Of a DNA stretch of 64,000 nucleotides, positions 1 through 7,245 are shown piece after piece. The DNA is from a phage. Both the position numbers and the translations under genes were made by a program. Below the pieces are notes generated by a model. It saw nothing but the letters and a program-made list of their open reading frames with translations. It had not been told where the DNA came from and made no database searches. Where the stretch lies: sequence record PZ452612.1, one strand, 5' to 3'. How positions within the stretch are numbered: position 1 is the first letter of the stretch; every line of letters begins with the position of its first letter.

Positions 1-1098
1 TGCTAACCCGTTTTTAGATAATTGACGTTTATAATATCTTTCACAATATGTACACGTCGTCCCGCAGATTTCATTAGCACAATCGAAATCTGGATGTCTG
101 AACCACCTTTTTTCTAAAAAGCCATCTAACAAAGAGGTTTCAATATTTACTGTATGTGAAAACTCAGTTTCGTTTTCAAGAGTGAAAATAGTCTCTAAAG
201 GCTTCCACAGTTCTAACAAATTACCTTCAAACTTTTCAGAAGCGTATGCTTCAAGAACTTTCAAAATGTAGTCTGTGCTACCTGTACGTCCTGAAACTTT
301 GAATTGAGTGATACCAATATCATTATAAAGTTTCAAATCTTGAGGACGAACAAAACGAGTTCTCAACCAGTTAAATGGGTCTGTATCACGAGCTTTAATA
401 CAGTGCTGCATAGGATATCCGTTTAAGGATTTAGCATCATCAGCTGTAACATCAGTACTATGGAAAATATAGCAAGAGTCACGATAGCTACAATGTGTTG
501 TATACCCTTTACCAGCATTAGAACAGAACTCATTTACAAGAACTTCAAATATTATATTGTTCTTATTGCAAAACTCTGCTGCACGCTTCAGGAAAGAAAC
601 TGAACGGTTCTTATGAATTCCACAGCAGACCTTTTTGATATTATACTGGTCATGCAAGTATTTGATTTGAGTTACAGCATCGACATGTAGAATTGTTGAA
701 ACTTCAATCTCAATGTCTTTATTGACTTCACGAACAATTTCCATAACAACAGGGTTAGCGATAGTAATACGCCATACGCCTATTGACCAAAGATACTGAA
801 CATAATCCTGAATAGCTTTCTTCTTCCACCCAACTAGTTCTCTTTTTGAACCAGGATTTATCGTGTTGAGTGTATAGTTAAAGCAAATACCTAATTCGTT
901 ACAACGTTTAACGTAATCTTCTAACATCTTTTTGTCAACGTCAGGAAGCCTAAAATCAGGTCTGGCTGCTACAAAAGCCATTTCTCTTGTAGAGCCGTAT
1001 ACTTCGTTTATCAAGCTATTAGGATAAGTTTTATTGAGCTCTACGATTTTATCAAGAAGAGCTAAATCAAAATTCGTTCCAATTTTAAAAGTATTCAT
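1..1098 (-). CDS. Hypothetical Cys-rich protein, partial (C-terminus runs off the window start); contains CX3CX2C near the visible end
   Basis: Manual reverse-complement translation from ATG at 1098: MNTFKIGTNFDLALLDKIVELNK...DFDCANEICGTTCTYCERYYKRQLSKNGLA, open to position 1. Not in the ORF track because it is open-ended. No family recognised. Confidence 0.5.
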   Translation of the reverse strand, partial: MNTFKIGTNFDLALLDKIVELNKTYPNSLINEVYGSTREMAFVAARPDFRLPDVDKKMLEDYVKRCNELGICFNYTLNTINPGSKRELVGWKKKAIQDYVQYLWSIGVWRITIANPVVMEIVREVNKDIEIEVSTILHVDAVTQIKYLHDQYNIKKVCCGIHKNRSVSFLKRAAEFCNKNNIIFEVLVNEFCSNAGKGYTTHCSYRDSCYIFHSTDVTADDAKSLNGYPMQHCIKARDTDPFNWLRTRFVRPQDLKLYNDIGITQFKVSGRTGSTDYILKVLEAYASEKFEGNLLELWKPLETIFTLENETEFSHTVNIETSLLDGFLEKRWFRHPDFDCANEICGTTCTYCERYYKRQLSKNGLA

Positions 1099-1154
1099 TT
1101 TTTTGCATCTCACGTTAATTGATGCGATGGTTTTTGCAGGTCTTACTTAAATTA

Positions 1155-1541
1155 TTATAGATTCGGTTTATATGATTTAAATGTTTCGAATTCGCCTTTA
1201 TTCATAAGAGCTTTGAATTCGTCAGGACGCATAGCTTTGTCGTCGATAATCCAATCATATACTGGTTTATGTGTTAGCAAATTATGGTACTTCAAACCAA
1301 TGTTTTCCAAGTTCTGAATCAGACTTGGGAGAATGTCAATTGCTATACGACCAGGACCTACTGACTTCATACCGCGAGCAGTGTAAAGCGTTATGGTATG
1401 CCCTGCATCATACAGGGCATTAATAGCAGTCACCATTTCGACGTCTGGTTTGAAGTTCACGTAATCACGATTGTTATTCCACTCTGTTATACAATCATCG
1501 ACATCAAAACAAAGATTAAGCATGTTTTCTACACGGTGCAT
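1155..1541 (-). CDS. HAD-superfamily phosphatase-like protein
   Basis: DxD motif FDVDDCIT near the N-terminus and a later IIDDKA motif fit HAD motifs I and IV. Start placed at the internal Met whose ATG overlaps the upstream stop (TAATG coupling); the track ORF extends to 1556. Confidence 0.5.
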   Translation of the reverse strand: MHRVENMLNLCFDVDDCITEWNNNRDYVNFKPDVEMVTAINALYDAGHTITLYTARGMKSVGPGRIAIDILPSLIQNLENIGLKYHNLLTHKPVYDWIIDDKAMRPDEFKALMNKGEFETFKSYKPNL

Positions 1542-3226
1542 TAGATTCGTTCCCATTGATGAGTGATATCGCCACCGATTGGACGATAAGAAACACCAGT
1601 TTCTTTATCAGTTAGTACCCATTTACCAGGATTTTTTGTAATCAGAGTAGCCGTTACAGGTTCTGCTACGTCATAACTAATAGAGCCGTCCTGAAGTACA
1701 CGGCCCATGTTACGTAATTGCTTAGTCAGAAGTTCCATACCTTTATAATATGCGGCTACCGCTTTAAGTGGATTATTCTTGAAATAACCACCTAATGCAA
1801 TCCAGATAATTGCTACAGCCAAATGATGATACTCGTTAAACGAACTCATCTTTCCATATTTGTAAACTAATGGATTGATGTTAATAGTCACATTACAAGT
1901 TGTTTCGTCAATAGTAAACTGTCCCCAGGTCGGATTAGCGTTGAATTCATCATAACCTGAAACAGCATAAAGCACTTTAGCTTCATCATACAATTTTGGC
2001 CCGTAAATCTTGGTTTCGCCAAAATATCCACGAGGGTCGATAAACTTGACTTCGCCGTTATCAGTAATCATAGTATTACTGAAGTTCGGGTCACCGTGAA
2101 TAACAGAGTACTGTCCCTGAGAACGGGTATGATAACGAATAAGATGTTCTAAAGCTTGCTTCAGCATTGGCTTCAGACGTCCAATCTTAGTGTAGTTCAC
2201 GTGTGTGATTTTACCAAATGAATCAATCAATGGCTGAATGCTTTCACAACGATCAATAACTTTCGTATAGAACTCTTTAGTGAAATCACGGCGAACAGTT
2301 TCAGGACTTACAAAATAAGTGTCTGTGCTGAATTTCAGTGCATCTAAAATTGCATCAACAATTTGTGGACGAGCAAGACTTGATTTGGATTTAATATATT
2401 CAAATGCTGGCTTACCTTTAATACGTTCCATTTCAAAATTATTTTCATTTACCGAAACTAACTGAGGAACTGAATCTGATTTCACTTTCAAATACCATGA
2501 AATCTCATCTTTTTGAAGAGCTCGACCTTGTTCGGTTAACGCGAATTTAGTTACAGTTTCTTCGCCAATTTCAACTGCATTAAAACTACGATTAAGTTCA
2601 CGAACTTCATGAGCTTTTTCAAGTTTAGGCATATCACCTAAATCAATTAGATTCATAAGCTCTGATTTATTGAATGCACTGCCGTAAAGGAATTCTACGA
2701 AATCACGTCCTTTGCAGTATTCATGAATTTCCTCATCAGTAGAACCCATGTAGAATTCCCAGTCTTTGAACTGATAAATTCCTACAACATTACCGCCTGT
2801 TGAACCTACGTTAGTGATATTTTCACCATCGAAATTATATCGACATTCATCACCCTTAACATAGATTGCGTTAACATTCCAAGACCATGAACCAAAATCA
2901 GGAATAATATCACACCAGTTAACAATTACGTTATGGCCATCTAAATCTTTGTATAATTTAGCAAGAGCATAAGCAGAACCATACGCTTCATCAACTGTAC
3001 GAATAGTCACATTGAACCCTTCTTGCTCGCAATAAGCTCGAACAGTTTCAGCAAATTTTGAATGAACTACTACAATAATTTCATCTGCGCCAAGGTCAGA
3101 ATAAATTGTATACAAATTGCTCAGAATAGTGTCTTGTTTATAGTTAACAAGAACTTTTGGAATATGATGCGTTATTGGATACAAACGAGTTGCCAGTCCA
3201 GCACCAAGAATAACAGCTTTTTTCAT
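1541..3226 (-). CDS. Bifunctional sugar-1-phosphate nucleotidyltransferase (N-terminal) / sugar kinase (C-terminal, APH/choline-kinase-like)
   Basis: N-terminus MKKAVILGAGLATRLYP matches the GxGxR loop of NTP-transferases. C-terminal half has IHGDPNFSNTMITDNGEVKFIDPRGYFG, an HGD...N...ID catalytic loop typical of phosphotransferase-fold kinases. 561 aa. Confidence 0.6.
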   Translation of the reverse strand: MKKAVILGAGLATRLYPITHHIPKVLVNYKQDTILSNLYTIYSDLGADEIIVVVHSKFAETVRAYCEQEGFNVTIRTVDEAYGSAYALAKLYKDLDGHNVIVNWCDIIPDFGSWSWNVNAIYVKGDECRYNFDGENITNVGSTGGNVVGIYQFKDWEFYMGSTDEEIHEYCKGRDFVEFLYGSAFNKSELMNLIDLGDMPKLEKAHEVRELNRSFNAVEIGEETVTKFALTEQGRALQKDEISWYLKVKSDSVPQLVSVNENNFEMERIKGKPAFEYIKSKSSLARPQIVDAILDALKFSTDTYFVSPETVRRDFTKEFYTKVIDRCESIQPLIDSFGKITHVNYTKIGRLKPMLKQALEHLIRYHTRSQGQYSVIHGDPNFSNTMITDNGEVKFIDPRGYFGETKIYGPKLYDEAKVLYAVSGYDEFNANPTWGQFTIDETTCNVTININPLVYKYGKMSSFNEYHHLAVAIIWIALGGYFKNNPLKAVAAYYKGMELLTKQLRNMGRVLQDGSISYDVAEPVTATLITKNPGKWVLTDKETGVSYRPIGGDITHQWERI

Positions 3227-3267
3227 GTTGTGGTCCTCATTGGTAAGTAGGTGTATTGTACACTATT

Positions 3268-3411
3268 CTAGTTAAAGCATTCATACTTTGCTTGTAGTCC
3301 AATCATAATCCATCCAATTACAAGTGTTGGAATCATTACTGGAGCCGTTAAGCTCCAGTAGATAGTCATGACAAGCATCAATAGTAAAAGTCCTATTGTT
3401 ATTGCTTTCAT
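3268..3411 (-). CDS. Small hydrophobic protein (47 aa), translationally coupled to the upstream isomerase gene
   Basis: Manual translation MKAITIGLLLLMLVMTIYWSLTAPVMIPTLVIGWIMIGLQAKYECFN; its ATG overlaps the stop of 3408..4043 (ATGA). Sits where T4 has imm/imm.1, but no sequence match is claimed. Confidence 0.3.
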   Translation of the reverse strand: MKAITIGLLLLMLVMTIYWSLTAPVMIPTLVIGWIMIGLQAKYECFN

Positions 3412-4043
3412 TGTTCGCCTCGTAACATGGCACCTAGTGCACCGCCTGGATGGAACTTAAGAAAGTCATTAGAGGTAAATCCACGTTCAGACGAAAGGTT
3501 GATAGCAAACGTATCGATAAGCGCTAACAACAATGTAGTGGACATAGTCGGAGCCAGAGAATTCTCATCAACCTCTACCGCGATGCCTGTACAGAAAGAG
3601 TAATCAAAAAGGGCTTCATTTTCTTGCGGAATGTCTGGGTTACAATGCAACAGAATCTGTTTGACATTTGGACGAATCATTTTAAGATGCTTAGCCACGC
3701 CTATCATTTCTTCAGTCTTACCAGAACGACTAATATGAATCAACACATCATTAGGCGCAATGAATCCTGCATCACCGTGAGAATAATGCCCAGTGTTCAA
3801 GTACATACTCGGGATACCGAGTGAAGCAAATGTCTCAGAAGCTTTAGTTGCAATATTAGCATTCTTACCAACACCTGTAATAATTACTCGGCTTTCATAA
3901 TTACTAAGTCCAGGGCGTCGAAGAGTTTCTAGAATAGCATTATAACGAGCAGGGTTTTGACTAATTACTTTGGCCATAGCGGCCAAAGAAGAAGCTTGTT
4001 TTATGATTGCGTCAATAGCGATAGTAATAGGAGTAGTTTTCAT
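3408..4043 (-). CDS. SIS-domain sugar-phosphate isomerase (arabinose-5-phosphate isomerase / phosphoheptose isomerase-like)
   Basis: 211 aa with VIITGVGKNANIATKASETFASLGIP, a SIS phosphosugar-binding signature. Lies directly downstream of gene 43. Confidence 0.6.
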   Translation of the reverse strand: MKTTPITIAIDAIIKQASSLAAMAKVISQNPARYNAILETLRRPGLSNYESRVIITGVGKNANIATKASETFASLGIPSMYLNTGHYSHGDAGFIAPNDVLIHISRSGKTEEMIGVAKHLKMIRPNVKQILLHCNPDIPQENEALFDYSFCTGIAVEVDENSLAPTMSTTLLLALIDTFAINLSSERGFTSNDFLKFHPGGALGAMLRGEQ

Positions 4044-4083
4044 ATTTCTCTCATTTAATTAGTTTACCGTCCATGACATTATA

Positions 4084-6795
4084 TCAAAAATCGAACATAT
4101 CGAACAGAGATGCTTTCTTCTCGTAATCGAGTTTCGCTGCTGATGTGAATCCTTCAAGTGGTTTAATAAATGTCTTCTCAAGGAGAACAGTGTAGTCCAT
4201 CCAATGAAGTACGTCATCTTTAATTAAATCTGTGATTTCAGTACCAGAAGGCCATGCGATACATTTATCACCGAACGGGTTTCCTTCACGTAAAGGCAGA
4301 ACATATACTTTTTCACCTTCTACAACTTGTGGAGCATCAATATTACCTTTGATAGCTCTGTTATATGTCAGAATTCCACGAATATGGAACGGACATTTAG
4401 GACCAGGGAATCCACCTACATCATATTTAGCAATGTTATTCGCAGAAGATACCGACGCGATGCTAATATAATTCAATTGACGGAATTCTTTTTCAAACTC
4501 TTTAAAATATTCTTGTAATGATTCTTCACCTTCTTGAAGCATACGACGAATACATTCTTTAAGAGCTTTCTGTACTGCTTTAGGGGTCGAAGATTTCTGA
4601 GTCTCTAGACCCATGATTTTGAGTTTAGGCTCAGCGTAACGAGTACCTTCCATATCCCACACGTTTAATGCGTAACGTTTCTTACCAGTCCAGAATCCAC
4701 CAATACCTTTAGAACCGAGCGGAGGACCAGCGATAGCTTCTCGGTCCATGAACATTAAGTGTTGTTTATTGTTCATGTATTCACACATTTCACGGAAACC
4801 TCTATCAATAGCAGGTTCCATACGTTCACGAGCGAACTTATCTAAGAAGTCTACCCAATGGTTGGTATCACGGAATTTAGATTCACCAACCTTATCGATA
4901 ATTTTATCAGCAGATACGTAAATAGAGTCTGTATCACCATAAAGAACGAAAGCTTCACCTTCTGTACCACAAACTTCGTTCAGATATTCATTAACTTTAC
5001 GTTCAATCCACTGTAAAGCCATTTGACCAAATGTTGTGATTGCAGTAGCATTACGCAAATCGTAATAACGGAACCAAACGTTGCCAAGTGCACCATAAAG
5101 TGAGTTGATAAGCAATTTACGGTTAATTTGTGCAGTCATACCTGCAACTTCAGTACGTTGAGCTCTAAACAACATTTCATTAAGAGATTTAGCAGACAAC
5201 TTTTTAATCTTTTCTTTAATCTCGTCAGTGAAGTCGAAACGATAATCAACATCTAATGGTTCGTCAACAGAAAGATTAGGATTATGCAACGCCTCTTTAA
5301 TTATTTCACCATTACGTTGAGCCGCAAGCATATAACCTTTATGTTCTTTACGTTGATTAAAGACCTTAGTGATTTCAGTTGGAACTACACCATCACGGTC
5401 TTTATAATACATCATGCCATTAGGAGAACAACTGTACACATCTGAAGGACGTTCAGCGATTGCGTTAATATAATCATGCAGTGGAGCTACTTTAAACGTT
5501 CCTGCTATTGTTTCCGGGCTAATATTCACTTGGCGAATAATACTTGGATACAGAGATGTAAGGTCGAAACTCATTACATATTTGTATCGATTTGGAATAG
5601 GTTCCTTAACAAAAGCGCCAGGATAAGGTTGAACCGGGTGAGAACGACCTTGTGGAATCACCTTGTTCTGCTCTTTAAGGCTATTAAAAATAATAGCATC
5701 CCATGTTTTAATTGGGCTAAACACAGATTGAATCTGTATCTTAGCATAATAACCCATGTCCAAACTCAAGTTGATGAACTGACGCTTAGCATCAATTTGC
5801 AATACACGATACACGTCGATAATGTTATAAGAAATATATCGTTGGTGATTGCTTTCACGAAGCTTAGAAATAGGGCCGTCATATTTCAGTTTACCAACGT
5901 TCAATTCAAATTCTGAAATGTAATCTAGAGAATACGACGGTTGATTGGTAAAAGAGAATTTTTTGTAAAGGTCGATATAATCAAGAACAGAGATACCGAA
6001 CAATGTAATGATTTCACGAGAACCATACATGTTTTCGATAACTTTAACACGAGTTTTACGATGCGGTGATAAACGTTTCGCAGTAGATTCGCCAAAAATA
6101 TTCTTGATTCGGTTATACACATATGGAATATCAAATGACTCAACGTTCCATCCAGTCAAAATGACAGGAGTTTTCTGTTGCCAGAAGTTGAGATATTCCA
6201 TCAACAATTCTTTTTCGTTATCGAACGGCATATAAATGATTTTATCGATAATTTCAGATGGAACTTCATCACCGCCTTGTTCTTGAAGCTTAGCAGCGAT
6301 TTCAATAGACCATTCTTCTACATTACCATATGGAGAATTCAATAGATCAAATACGTAGAACCTGTCGTCAATTGAGTCATAATGGGTGATAGCATCAATC
6401 GGATGTTTTGCTTGTGATGGCTCAGGGAACCCATCCGGAGATGTTACTTCGATGTCGAAGTTAGCCACACGAATTTTTGTATGGTCGTATTTGATTTCAT
6501 AGTTATAAGTGTCAGACAAATACGCCAATTTGAAATCGTCCATGCCAAGTGCTTCAAGTCCGATATCTTCCATGCGTTTAATCCATTGGGAGGCATCACG
6601 CATATTAGCGAACAACTTACGAGTACACGGCTTACCGTAGATATCGAAATATTTCGTAGCCTGACTTTCCGGACAATGAGCAAACAGTGATGGTTTATAT
6701 TCTACTTCACGAGTACGTTCACGGCCATTAGAATCGATGTAACGTTCAAAAATTGAATCACCAATCTGTTCAACCGTTAAGTAAAATTCTTTCAT
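4084..6795 (-). CDS. 43: DNA polymerase (family B), gp43
   Basis: 903 aa, MKEFYLTVEQIGDSIFERYIDSNGRERTREVEYKPSLFAHCPESQ... Contains exo motifs (FDIEV, YNIIDVYRV) and pol motifs (DTDS, KKRYA). Matches the RB69 gp43 sequence as recalled. Confidence 0.97.
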   Translation of the reverse strand: MKEFYLTVEQIGDSIFERYIDSNGRERTREVEYKPSLFAHCPESQATKYFDIYGKPCTRKLFANMRDASQWIKRMEDIGLEALGMDDFKLAYLSDTYNYEIKYDHTKIRVANFDIEVTSPDGFPEPSQAKHPIDAITHYDSIDDRFYVFDLLNSPYGNVEEWSIEIAAKLQEQGGDEVPSEIIDKIIYMPFDNEKELLMEYLNFWQQKTPVILTGWNVESFDIPYVYNRIKNIFGESTAKRLSPHRKTRVKVIENMYGSREIITLFGISVLDYIDLYKKFSFTNQPSYSLDYISEFELNVGKLKYDGPISKLRESNHQRYISYNIIDVYRVLQIDAKRQFINLSLDMGYYAKIQIQSVFSPIKTWDAIIFNSLKEQNKVIPQGRSHPVQPYPGAFVKEPIPNRYKYVMSFDLTSLYPSIIRQVNISPETIAGTFKVAPLHDYINAIAERPSDVYSCSPNGMMYYKDRDGVVPTEITKVFNQRKEHKGYMLAAQRNGEIIKEALHNPNLSVDEPLDVDYRFDFTDEIKEKIKKLSAKSLNEMLFRAQRTEVAGMTAQINRKLLINSLYGALGNVWFRYYDLRNATAITTFGQMALQWIERKVNEYLNEVCGTEGEAFVLYGDTDSIYVSADKIIDKVGESKFRDTNHWVDFLDKFARERMEPAIDRGFREMCEYMNNKQHLMFMDREAIAGPPLGSKGIGGFWTGKKRYALNVWDMEGTRYAEPKLKIMGLETQKSSTPKAVQKALKECIRRMLQEGEESLQEYFKEFEKEFRQLNYISIASVSSANNIAKYDVGGFPGPKCPFHIRGILTYNRAIKGNIDAPQVVEGEKVYVLPLREGNPFGDKCIAWPSGTEITDLIKDDVLHWMDYTVLLEKTFIKPLEGFTSAAKLDYEKKASLFDMFDF

Positions 6796-6807
6796 TTAAT
6801 TTCCTTT

Positions 6808-6823
6808 AGACGAGTTATTGTCT
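6808..6823 (-). promoter_or_regulatory. Putative gp43 translational operator hairpin (stem AGAC/GUCU, 8-nt loop AAUAACUC) just 5' of the gene 43 Shine-Dalgarno
   Basis: mRNA reads AGACAAUAACUCGUCU AAAGGAAAUUAA AUG. The loop sequence and position match the T4-type gp43 autoregulatory operator architecture. Confidence 0.5.
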
Positions 6824-6853
6824 TTTGTTTGTTGATGAACTTATTATACTCCA

Positions 6854-6873
6854 AATGGGACCGAAGTCCCATT
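6854..6873 (-). other. Stable hairpin (AUGGGAC-UUCG-GUCCCAU) immediately after the regA stop, followed by GGAGUAUAAU
   Basis: Perfect 7-bp inverted repeat with a UUCG tetraloop seen in sequence; no long U-tract follows. Confidence 0.4.
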
Positions 6874-6876
6874 GCT

Positions 6877-7245
6877 TTAATTACCAATTGTATATTTTGC
6901 TTTCAAAGTCCAGTCATCTTTCTGTTTAAAAGAGATAACACGGAAGTTATTAGTCAGGCCAAACAGATCTTCACGAGCAGAGTCTTCAATAACAATCAAT
7001 CCCCAGTCTTCAAGCAACTGAGCAATCGAATCACGTCGCTGATAGTCTTCACCATCAATATCAACCTGACGTCCGTCCATACGCAGCATTTCTTTAAAGT
7101 GGACGATGTAATATTTACCTTGCTTTTGGAGGATATGACAAGACTGGTAAAGGACTTTATCCTTGTTATTAGCGATGCCCATACGGGTTAGAGTCTCTTT
7201 GACTTTCAGAAAATCTTCAGGGTTCTTCAATTTAATTTCAATCAT
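6877..7245 (-). CDS. regA: Translational repressor RegA
   Basis: MIEIKLKNPEDFLKVKETLTRMGIANNKDKVLYQSCHILQK... matches T4 RegA as recalled; syntenic between 62 and 43. Start taken at the internal Met. Confidence 0.85.
   Translation of the reverse strand: MIEIKLKNPEDFLKVKETLTRMGIANNKDKVLYQSCHILQKQGKYYIVHFKEMLRMDGRQVDIDGEDYQRRDSIAQLLEDWGLIVIEDSAREDLFGLTNNFRVISFKQKDDWTLKAKYTIGN

Follow-up and report, generated by a model that had tools for sequence, protein, structure and literature searches.

The 64,000-nucleotide phage sequence PZ452612.1 (called the window below, in the sense of the whole stretch analysed) contains, at positions 1541–3226 on the minus strand, the bifunctional gene that is the subject of this article. 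It is an intact single open reading frame (ORF) with an ATG start, preceded by the ribosome-binding site GAGGA 7 nt upstream, and it encodes 561 amino acids, so the single polypeptide announced by a first-pass annotation, made from the letters alone, is indeed there. The gene is the ortholog of RB69 ORF53_52c, also designated gp52:53, which PMC13326640 equates with AfhE of phage HY126, and it is called AfhE-like here. Its product is very probably a bifunctional enzyme in a four-step route to UDP-D-arabinofuranose, which serves as the sugar donor when 5-hydroxycytosine in Mosigvirus DNA is arabinosylated. Window bases 1–4100 match the E. coli O157 typing phages 3, 6, and 13 with 100% identity and RB69 with 98.5%; all of these are T-even phages of the genus Mosigvirus. 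Within this region the AfhE-like gene lies directly downstream of that for DNA polymerase gp43 (4084–6795), in a block that is present in RB69 and absent from T4.

In the GenBank record of RB69 the corresponding region is divided into ORF053c and ORF052c, and alignment of its DNA with the window reveals a single additional C in RB69 (GCAGTTcGAAATT). Re-sequencing had already identified this C as a sequencing error; the product was renamed ORF53_52c (561 aa, 63.9 kDa), and its expression yielded a band of the expected size (Thomas et al., 2018, PMC6024577). Once the additional C is removed, the RB69 and window proteins are equal in length and identical at 559 of 561 residues, with no substantive difference beyond the two substitutions Q233H and T367N. 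Both genes lie between those for DNA polymerase (gp43) and uvsX and share an SIS isomerase, a HAD phosphatase, and a Peptidase-U32-family gene as neighbors, and orthology to gp52:53 follows from this near-identity and synteny. The fusion, which had been described as unusual, is thus that of an already described enzyme: finding it again was a correct rediscovery of a near-identical ortholog of a published protein. The protein also matches phrog_4098 over its full length (E 1.7e-294). Its names in databases vary. Identical GenBank records (KP869101, NC_041863, and others) carry the labels “GlmU” or “hypothetical protein,” and the Bas47 ortholog, with 97.8% DNA identity, is annotated as a “putative enzyme involved in UDP-arabinose biosynthesis.”

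The N-terminal part of the protein (2612–3226, minus strand; approximately residues 1–205) is a sugar-1-phosphate nucleotidyltransferase (NTase) domain. Its loop G8-A-G10-L-A-T-R14, followed by P23-K24, carries the GxGxR motif pointed out in the first-pass annotation and falls within residues 1–17. Pfam NTP_transferase (PF00483) is matched over residues 3–99 with 38.4 bits, above the cut-off of 21.2, and by 40 of 47 family members. Residue conservation was judged on an alignment of these 47 homologs, reaching down to about 30% identity, in which G10, R14, K24, G83, D106, D195, D198, and K201 are invariant in the NTase half; the aspartates among them would be acidic metal ligands. In a high-confidence predicted model the domain adopts the fold of RmlA, MurU, LicC, and HddC. 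When the family profile was compared with solved structures, the best relative of the domain was HddC (6jq8), a heptose-1-phosphate guanylyltransferase, with an E of 1.5e-13, and PDB sequence searches, run with the single protein and also with the family profile, returned nucleotidyltransferases only, with no close solved structure. Reading the nucleotide specificity from the equivalent of the base-reading Gln of RmlA and GlmU was considered and dropped, the V78 position being variable in the family. The nucleotide can indeed not be read from the sequence, as had been anticipated, and the assignment to UDP comes from the literature.

Two other identities have been proposed for the protein. Under the GenBank label “glmU: bifunctional protein GlmU,” carried by identical records, it would be a GlmU-type bifunctional enzyme, and its N-terminal part weakly resembles the uridylyltransferase domains of GlmU. 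The NCBIfam model for glmU (TIGR01173), whose cut-off is 366.85 bits, gives, however, a score of 21.6, over residues 3–104 only, and the C-terminal half has a kinase fold, not the left-handed beta-helix of an acetyltransferase. What the AfhE-like protein has in common with GlmU is an N-terminal domain of uridylyltransferase type, without the acetyltransferase beta-helix; fold and score refute the GlmU identity, which retains hardly any chance of being right, and the GenBank annotation is wrong. The other proposal is that the AfhE-like protein is itself a DNA glycosyltransferase, as suggested for its Thanatos homolog TH1_060. CDD places a “glycosyltransferase family A” label on the GT-A-like Rossmann fold, and the option was left open by the authors of PMC12838424, but the signature GxGxR...K is invariant, the nearest structures are all nucleotidyltransferases, and RB69 has separate arabinosyltransferases that have been identified (PMC13326640). 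We give this proposal almost no credence.

The C-terminal part (1697–2599, minus strand; approximately residues 210–510) is a choline-kinase/APH-like small-molecule kinase domain. The HGD...N...D loop recognized by the first-pass annotation is found in residues 376–403, and the residues characteristic of protein-kinase-like small-molecule kinases, the HxDxxxxN...D motif with its Lys/Glu pair, are all present (H377-G-D379-PNFS-N384, D397, K227, E241). All 47 sequences have K227, E241, D379, N384, and D397, and 46 have H377; the HGD aspartate (D379) and the Lys and Arg of the NTase (K24, R14), whose conservation had been proposed as a check, are thus without exception in the family. R213, R326, R399, K417, and K488 are further invariant basic residues of the kinase domain. 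The predicted model yields a bilobal kinase fold with high confidence, so that both expected folds are recovered. Domain-wise hidden Markov model searches, another of the suggested checks, separated the two halves: NTP_transferase was found above its cut-off, whereas in the window protein the kinase families stayed below theirs, with sub-threshold matches of APH (13.9 bits, cut-off 23.2), fructosamine kinase (Fructosamin_kin, 16.7 bits, cut-off 22.4), and RIO to residues 344–409. APH is matched by 20 of the 47 homologs at E<=0.01, with a best value of 6.1e-10. The same PDB sequence searches, with single protein and family profile, gave no kinase match at E<0.01. The domain is assigned to the kinases on the grounds of its modeled fold, its motifs, and the Pfam matches of its relatives.

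Beyond the kinase, residues 511–561 (1544–1696, minus strand) make up a C-terminal extension consisting mainly of short strands, with a predicted local distance difference test score (pLDDT) of 80–89. It is present in 29 of the 47 aligned homologs, the closer members from T4-like phages only; the 18 most distant lack it, and distant homologs align only as far as about residue 500. The model confidently fixes the relative arrangement of the NTase and kinase domains.

The neighboring genes place these activities in a context. Upstream of the AfhE-like gene lies an SIS-domain arabinose-5-phosphate isomerase (3408–4043, minus strand; 211 aa), the ortholog of RB69 gp55, which is of the KpsF/GutQ type without CBS domains. 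It scores 41.9 bits with Pfam SIS and, over the SIS part only, 112.9 bits with NCBIfam KpsF/GutQ and 107.7 bits with KdsD, and it belongs to phrog_5670. On the other side is a small HAD-family phosphatase (1155–1541, minus strand), AfhF-like and orthologous to RB69 gp51, which matches the NCBIfam capsule biosynthesis phosphatase TIGR01689 (E 2e-13), with a weak HAD-IIIA match, and carries the motifs FDVDD...YTAR...K...IIDD in its translation. It is misnamed “phosphoheptose isomerase” in databases, including PHROG 1238. In the sequence TAATG the probable ATG start of the phosphatase overlaps the stop codon TAA of the bifunctional gene, an arrangement suggestive of translational coupling between the two. 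Between the isomerase and the bifunctional gene is a strongly hydrophobic ORF of 47 codons (MKAITIGLLLLMLVMTIYWSLTAPVMIPTLVIGWIMIGLQAKYECFN; 3268–3411, minus strand), whose ATG overlaps the isomerase stop (ATGA); in the corresponding RB69 region a shorter version goes under the name ORF054c and is described as “similar to T4 42-imm intercistronic region.” The Peptidase-U32-family gene, ortholog of RB69 gp50 (1–1107, minus strand; Pfam Peptidase_U32, 42.4 bits), is truncated by the window edge, and thymidylate-synthase-like and transferase genes lie past that left edge. The genes of the module are closely packed on a single strand, and a scan of positions 1–7000 for consensus promoters and terminators remained at chance level. 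The AfhE-like gene is adjoined within the window by the SIS, HAD, and U32 genes, in line with linkage to an isomerase, a phosphatase, and a DNA-modification module.

ORF53_52c and ORF055c were proposed as candidates for UDP-arabinose synthesis in 2018 (Thomas et al., 2018, PMC6024577). The DNA of RB69 was since found to contain arabosylated 5-hydroxycytosine, not hydroxymethylcytosine (PMC13326640, NAR 2026), and that of Mosigvirus NP contains 5-arabinosyl-dC together with a di-arabinosyl form (PMC13390438). Although the first-pass annotation held that the sugar could not be read from the sequence, the adjoining KpsF/GutQ-type isomerase and the arabinosylated DNA of Mosigvirus point to D-arabinose. 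RB69 gp55, gp52:53, and gp51 have been assigned to a route from ribulose-5-phosphate to a nucleoside diphosphate (NDP)-arabinofuranose (PMC13326640). That article reports that HY126 AfhE was biochemically shown to be both a kinase for D-arabinose-5-phosphate and a pyrophosphorylase for UDP-D-arabinose, that it turns arabinose-5-phosphate into the 1,5-bisphosphate, and that AfhF dephosphorylates this product. Together with the near-identity to RB69 ORF53_52c, these reports bear out NDP-sugar synthesis, the general role originally suggested.

On this basis, a route of four steps can be proposed. The SIS isomerase would first convert host ribulose-5-phosphate into D-arabinose-5-phosphate. The C-terminal kinase domain would then use ATP to phosphorylate the anomeric C1-hydroxyl, giving arabinofuranose-1,5-bisphosphate, with D379 as the likely catalytic base, N384 and D397 binding Mg, and K227 and E241 holding the ATP phosphates. 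The HAD phosphatase would strip the 5-phosphate to leave arabinofuranose-1-phosphate, which the NTase domain (G10, R14, K24, D106) would join to UTP, producing UDP-arabinofuranose and pyrophosphate. Finally, arabinosyltransferases encoded outside the window would move the sugar onto 5-hydroxycytosine in DNA. The fused activities would be the second and fourth steps and therefore not consecutive. Routing through the 5-phosphate would keep the pentose locked as a furanose, so that no mutase would be needed for UDP-arabinofuranose. What was shown here comprises the architecture and both folds, the conservation of residues, how nearly identical the protein is to RB69 gp52:53, and the conserved linkage to a phosphatase and a thymidylate-synthase-like gene; the substrates, step order, and UDP specificity are taken from the literature on the HY126 orthologs AfhE and AfhF, as given in PMC13326640.

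The order of the steps is where the main rival differs. In a salvage order, HAD would act first and free D-arabinose from arabinose-5-phosphate, after which an AmgK-like anomeric 1-kinase and the NTase would work consecutively on one polypeptide, much as the first-pass annotation had imagined two consecutive steps on a free sugar. Table 1 of PMC13326640 gives just these roles to RB69 gp51 and to the C-terminal domain of gp52:53, and there is a resemblance of the NTase domain to MurU, which works with the anomeric kinase AmgK. In its text, where biochemistry on HY126 is cited, that article has AfhE acting on arabinose-5-phosphate and AfhF on the 1,5-bisphosphate, so that the HAD step intervenes and consecutive action on a free sugar is probably wrong. 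Chemistry speaks in the same direction. Arabinose in its free state is largely a pyranose, whereas the sugar on the DNA is furanosyl, and the furanose ring is imposed by a phosphate at position 5. In addition, the invariant R213, R326, R399, K417, and K488 would suit a phosphorylated substrate. We consider the salvage order improbable, and the order in which the kinase precedes the phosphatase is retained here.

Several observations nevertheless weigh against the four-step route as proposed. The enzyme data come from HY126 AfhE only, and the equivalence with AfhE is second-hand, via PMC13326640, whose Table 1 has the other order, in which the phosphatase acts before a kinase that works on free arabinose. 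Phage HY126 itself does not occur among the best 60 megablast matches. The Thanatos homolog TH1_060, which is 54% identical to the window protein and essential for phage propagation, had no pyrophosphorylase activity with xylose-1-phosphate and five NTPs (PMC12838424), a result that is uninformative on arabinofuranose-1-phosphate but lends no positive support. The kinase domain of the window protein stays under every Pfam gathering threshold. Lastly, the Klebsiella Marfavirus homolog of phage vB_KpnM-VAC36 (L005, 43% identity) is accompanied by no phage SIS isomerase. Presumably this virus takes arabinose-5-phosphate from its host, the isomerase being dispensable where the host supplies that compound.

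The logic of an SIS isomerase, an anomeric kinase that turns a sugar phosphate into a bisphosphate, a HAD phosphatase that takes off the distal phosphate, and finally an NTase is common to the AfhE-like route and to two heptose pathways, HldE with GmhA/GmhB for ADP-heptose and HddA/HddC with GmhA/GmhB for GDP-heptose. HldE too carries kinase and transferase activities on one polypeptide though they are not consecutive; its N-terminal kinase has the ribokinase/PfkB fold, and its transferase is of the cytidylyltransferase type. In the AfhE-like protein, unlike HldE, the kinase is APH/choline-kinase-like and C-terminal, the NTase is RmlA/MurU-like, and a pentofuranose takes the place of the heptose. 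Neither a PfkB nor an HldE family occurs among the family and structure matches listed, and the AfhE-like protein is an analogue of HldE, not a homologue.

The fold pair itself, an APH/choline-kinase-like kinase with a minimal RmlA-like NTase, is found again in AmgK with MurU, which serve MurNAc salvage, and in LicA with LicC, which activate phosphocholine. These are separate proteins that carry out consecutive steps on an unphosphorylated substrate, whereas the AfhE-like activities are fused and have a phosphatase step between them. A LicA-LicC-type fusion, in which a kinase for choline or another alcohol is joined to a cytidylyltransferase and makes a CDP-alcohol, could be imagined, as could an enzyme of some other NDP-sugar, for instance a pentose linked to GDP or CDP. 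Across phages, however, the gene is linked to an arabinose-5-phosphate isomerase, a phosphatase, and a DNA-modification module; arabinose has been found chemically on Mosigvirus DNA; and UDP-arabinose is reported for AfhE in PMC13326640. Such alternatives are highly improbable, and the LicA/LicC-type reading is rejected, as is that of a direct glycosyltransferase, on score, fold, and context.

The AfhE-like protein is far from confined to Mosigvirus. A tblastn search with it found 374 phage records, and in 364 of these the match spans 80% or more of the query. Measured against the window protein, identity is 95–100% in Mosigvirus, about 70% in Erwinia, Kosakonia, and Enterobacter phages, about 56% in Acinetobacter phages, 54% in Shewanella phage Thanatos, about 43% in Klebsiella and other E. 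coli T4-like phages, and about 28% in Vibrio and Tenacibaculum phages. Because the fusion of NTase and kinase is found across phage groups from 28 to 100% identity, it is the rule in the AfhE-like group rather than an oddity.

The gene module is conserved along with it. Acinetobacter phage DLP1 has the isomerase, the fusion, HAD, a thymidylate-synthase-like gene, a thymidylate kinase, and a glycosyltransferase, and on a phage-like metagenomic contig of 350 kb the fusion is accompanied by SIS, GT2, HAD, and a thymidylate-synthase gene. In Tenacibaculum phage PTm5 (28% identity) the fusion is followed by a histidine phosphatase (L007 6571–7275) and then by a thymidylate-synthase-like gene. HAD appears to have undergone non-orthologous replacement there by a protein of the histidine phosphatase family, and the phosphatase step is thus retained even with another phosphatase family. 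Homologs of about 900 aa unite HAD, SIS, NTase, and kinase, and the joining of these activities in single polypeptides, classic fusion evidence, places them in one pathway.

Other observations concern the surroundings and architecture of individual homologs. In phage vB_KpnM-VAC36 the homolog stands directly after the DNA polymerase; genes for U32, thymidylate kinase, and a thymidylate-synthase-like protein are close by, and the place of HAD is taken by a small protein that bears the annotation “polynucleotide kinase.” One homolog of about 900 aa (P0084, L002 8001–10781) is encoded on a contig of 103 kb, between a MutS-plus-HNH gene and the RNA polymerase genes Rpb2 and Rpb10; this contig looks like that of a giant (nucleocytoplasmic) virus. 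Elsewhere (L009 1–2144 and 8001–10679, P0118), two paralogous HAD-NTase-kinase fusions lie by sugar epimerases, GT2, and a UDP-GlcNAc-2-epimerase-like gene. A protein similar to these fusions (P0091) occurs in a transcriptome of Ceratiomyxa fruticulosa. Taken together, these cases suggest use of the same NDP-pentose route by eukaryotic viruses, perhaps to build glycans and not for DNA. PMC13326640 makes no mention of this. Metagenomic proteins of about 788 aa (P0107, P0108, P0111, P0113, P0119) join NTase and kinase to a C-terminal region that is, by one source, like a cupin-type mannose-6-phosphate isomerase; this architecture may be a variant pathway for another sugar.

The U32 gene is part of the RB69-specific gene module that contains the AfhE-like gene. 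The U32 family includes O2-independent hydroxylases, such as UbiU/UbiV, TrhP, which forms 5-hydroxyuridine in tRNA, and RlhA, which forms 5-hydroxycytidine in rRNA. The phage protein could give an anaerobic path to 5-hydroxycytosine beside the O2-dependent flavin synthase, an idea not discussed in PMC13326640, where Table 1 enters RB69 gp50 as a “sugar or heterocycle reductase.”

It is also conceivable, if rather unlikely, that the C-terminal extension and the fixed domain arrangement of the AfhE-like protein dock the HAD phosphatase, so that the bisphosphate is relayed among three active sites in a true metabolon. If true, this would account both for the fusion of non-consecutive activities and for the translational coupling of the phosphatase gene. 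The value of the result lies in the correction of annotation, for the gene labeled “GlmU” or “hypothetical” as well as for its phosphatase partner labeled “phosphoheptose isomerase.” Arabinosylated 5-hydroxycytosine, for which the AfhE-like enzyme would provide the sugar donor, shields these phages against restriction enzymes, DNA glycosylases, and some CRISPR-Cas systems, and as such it bears on phage engineering and on the use of these phages in therapy.

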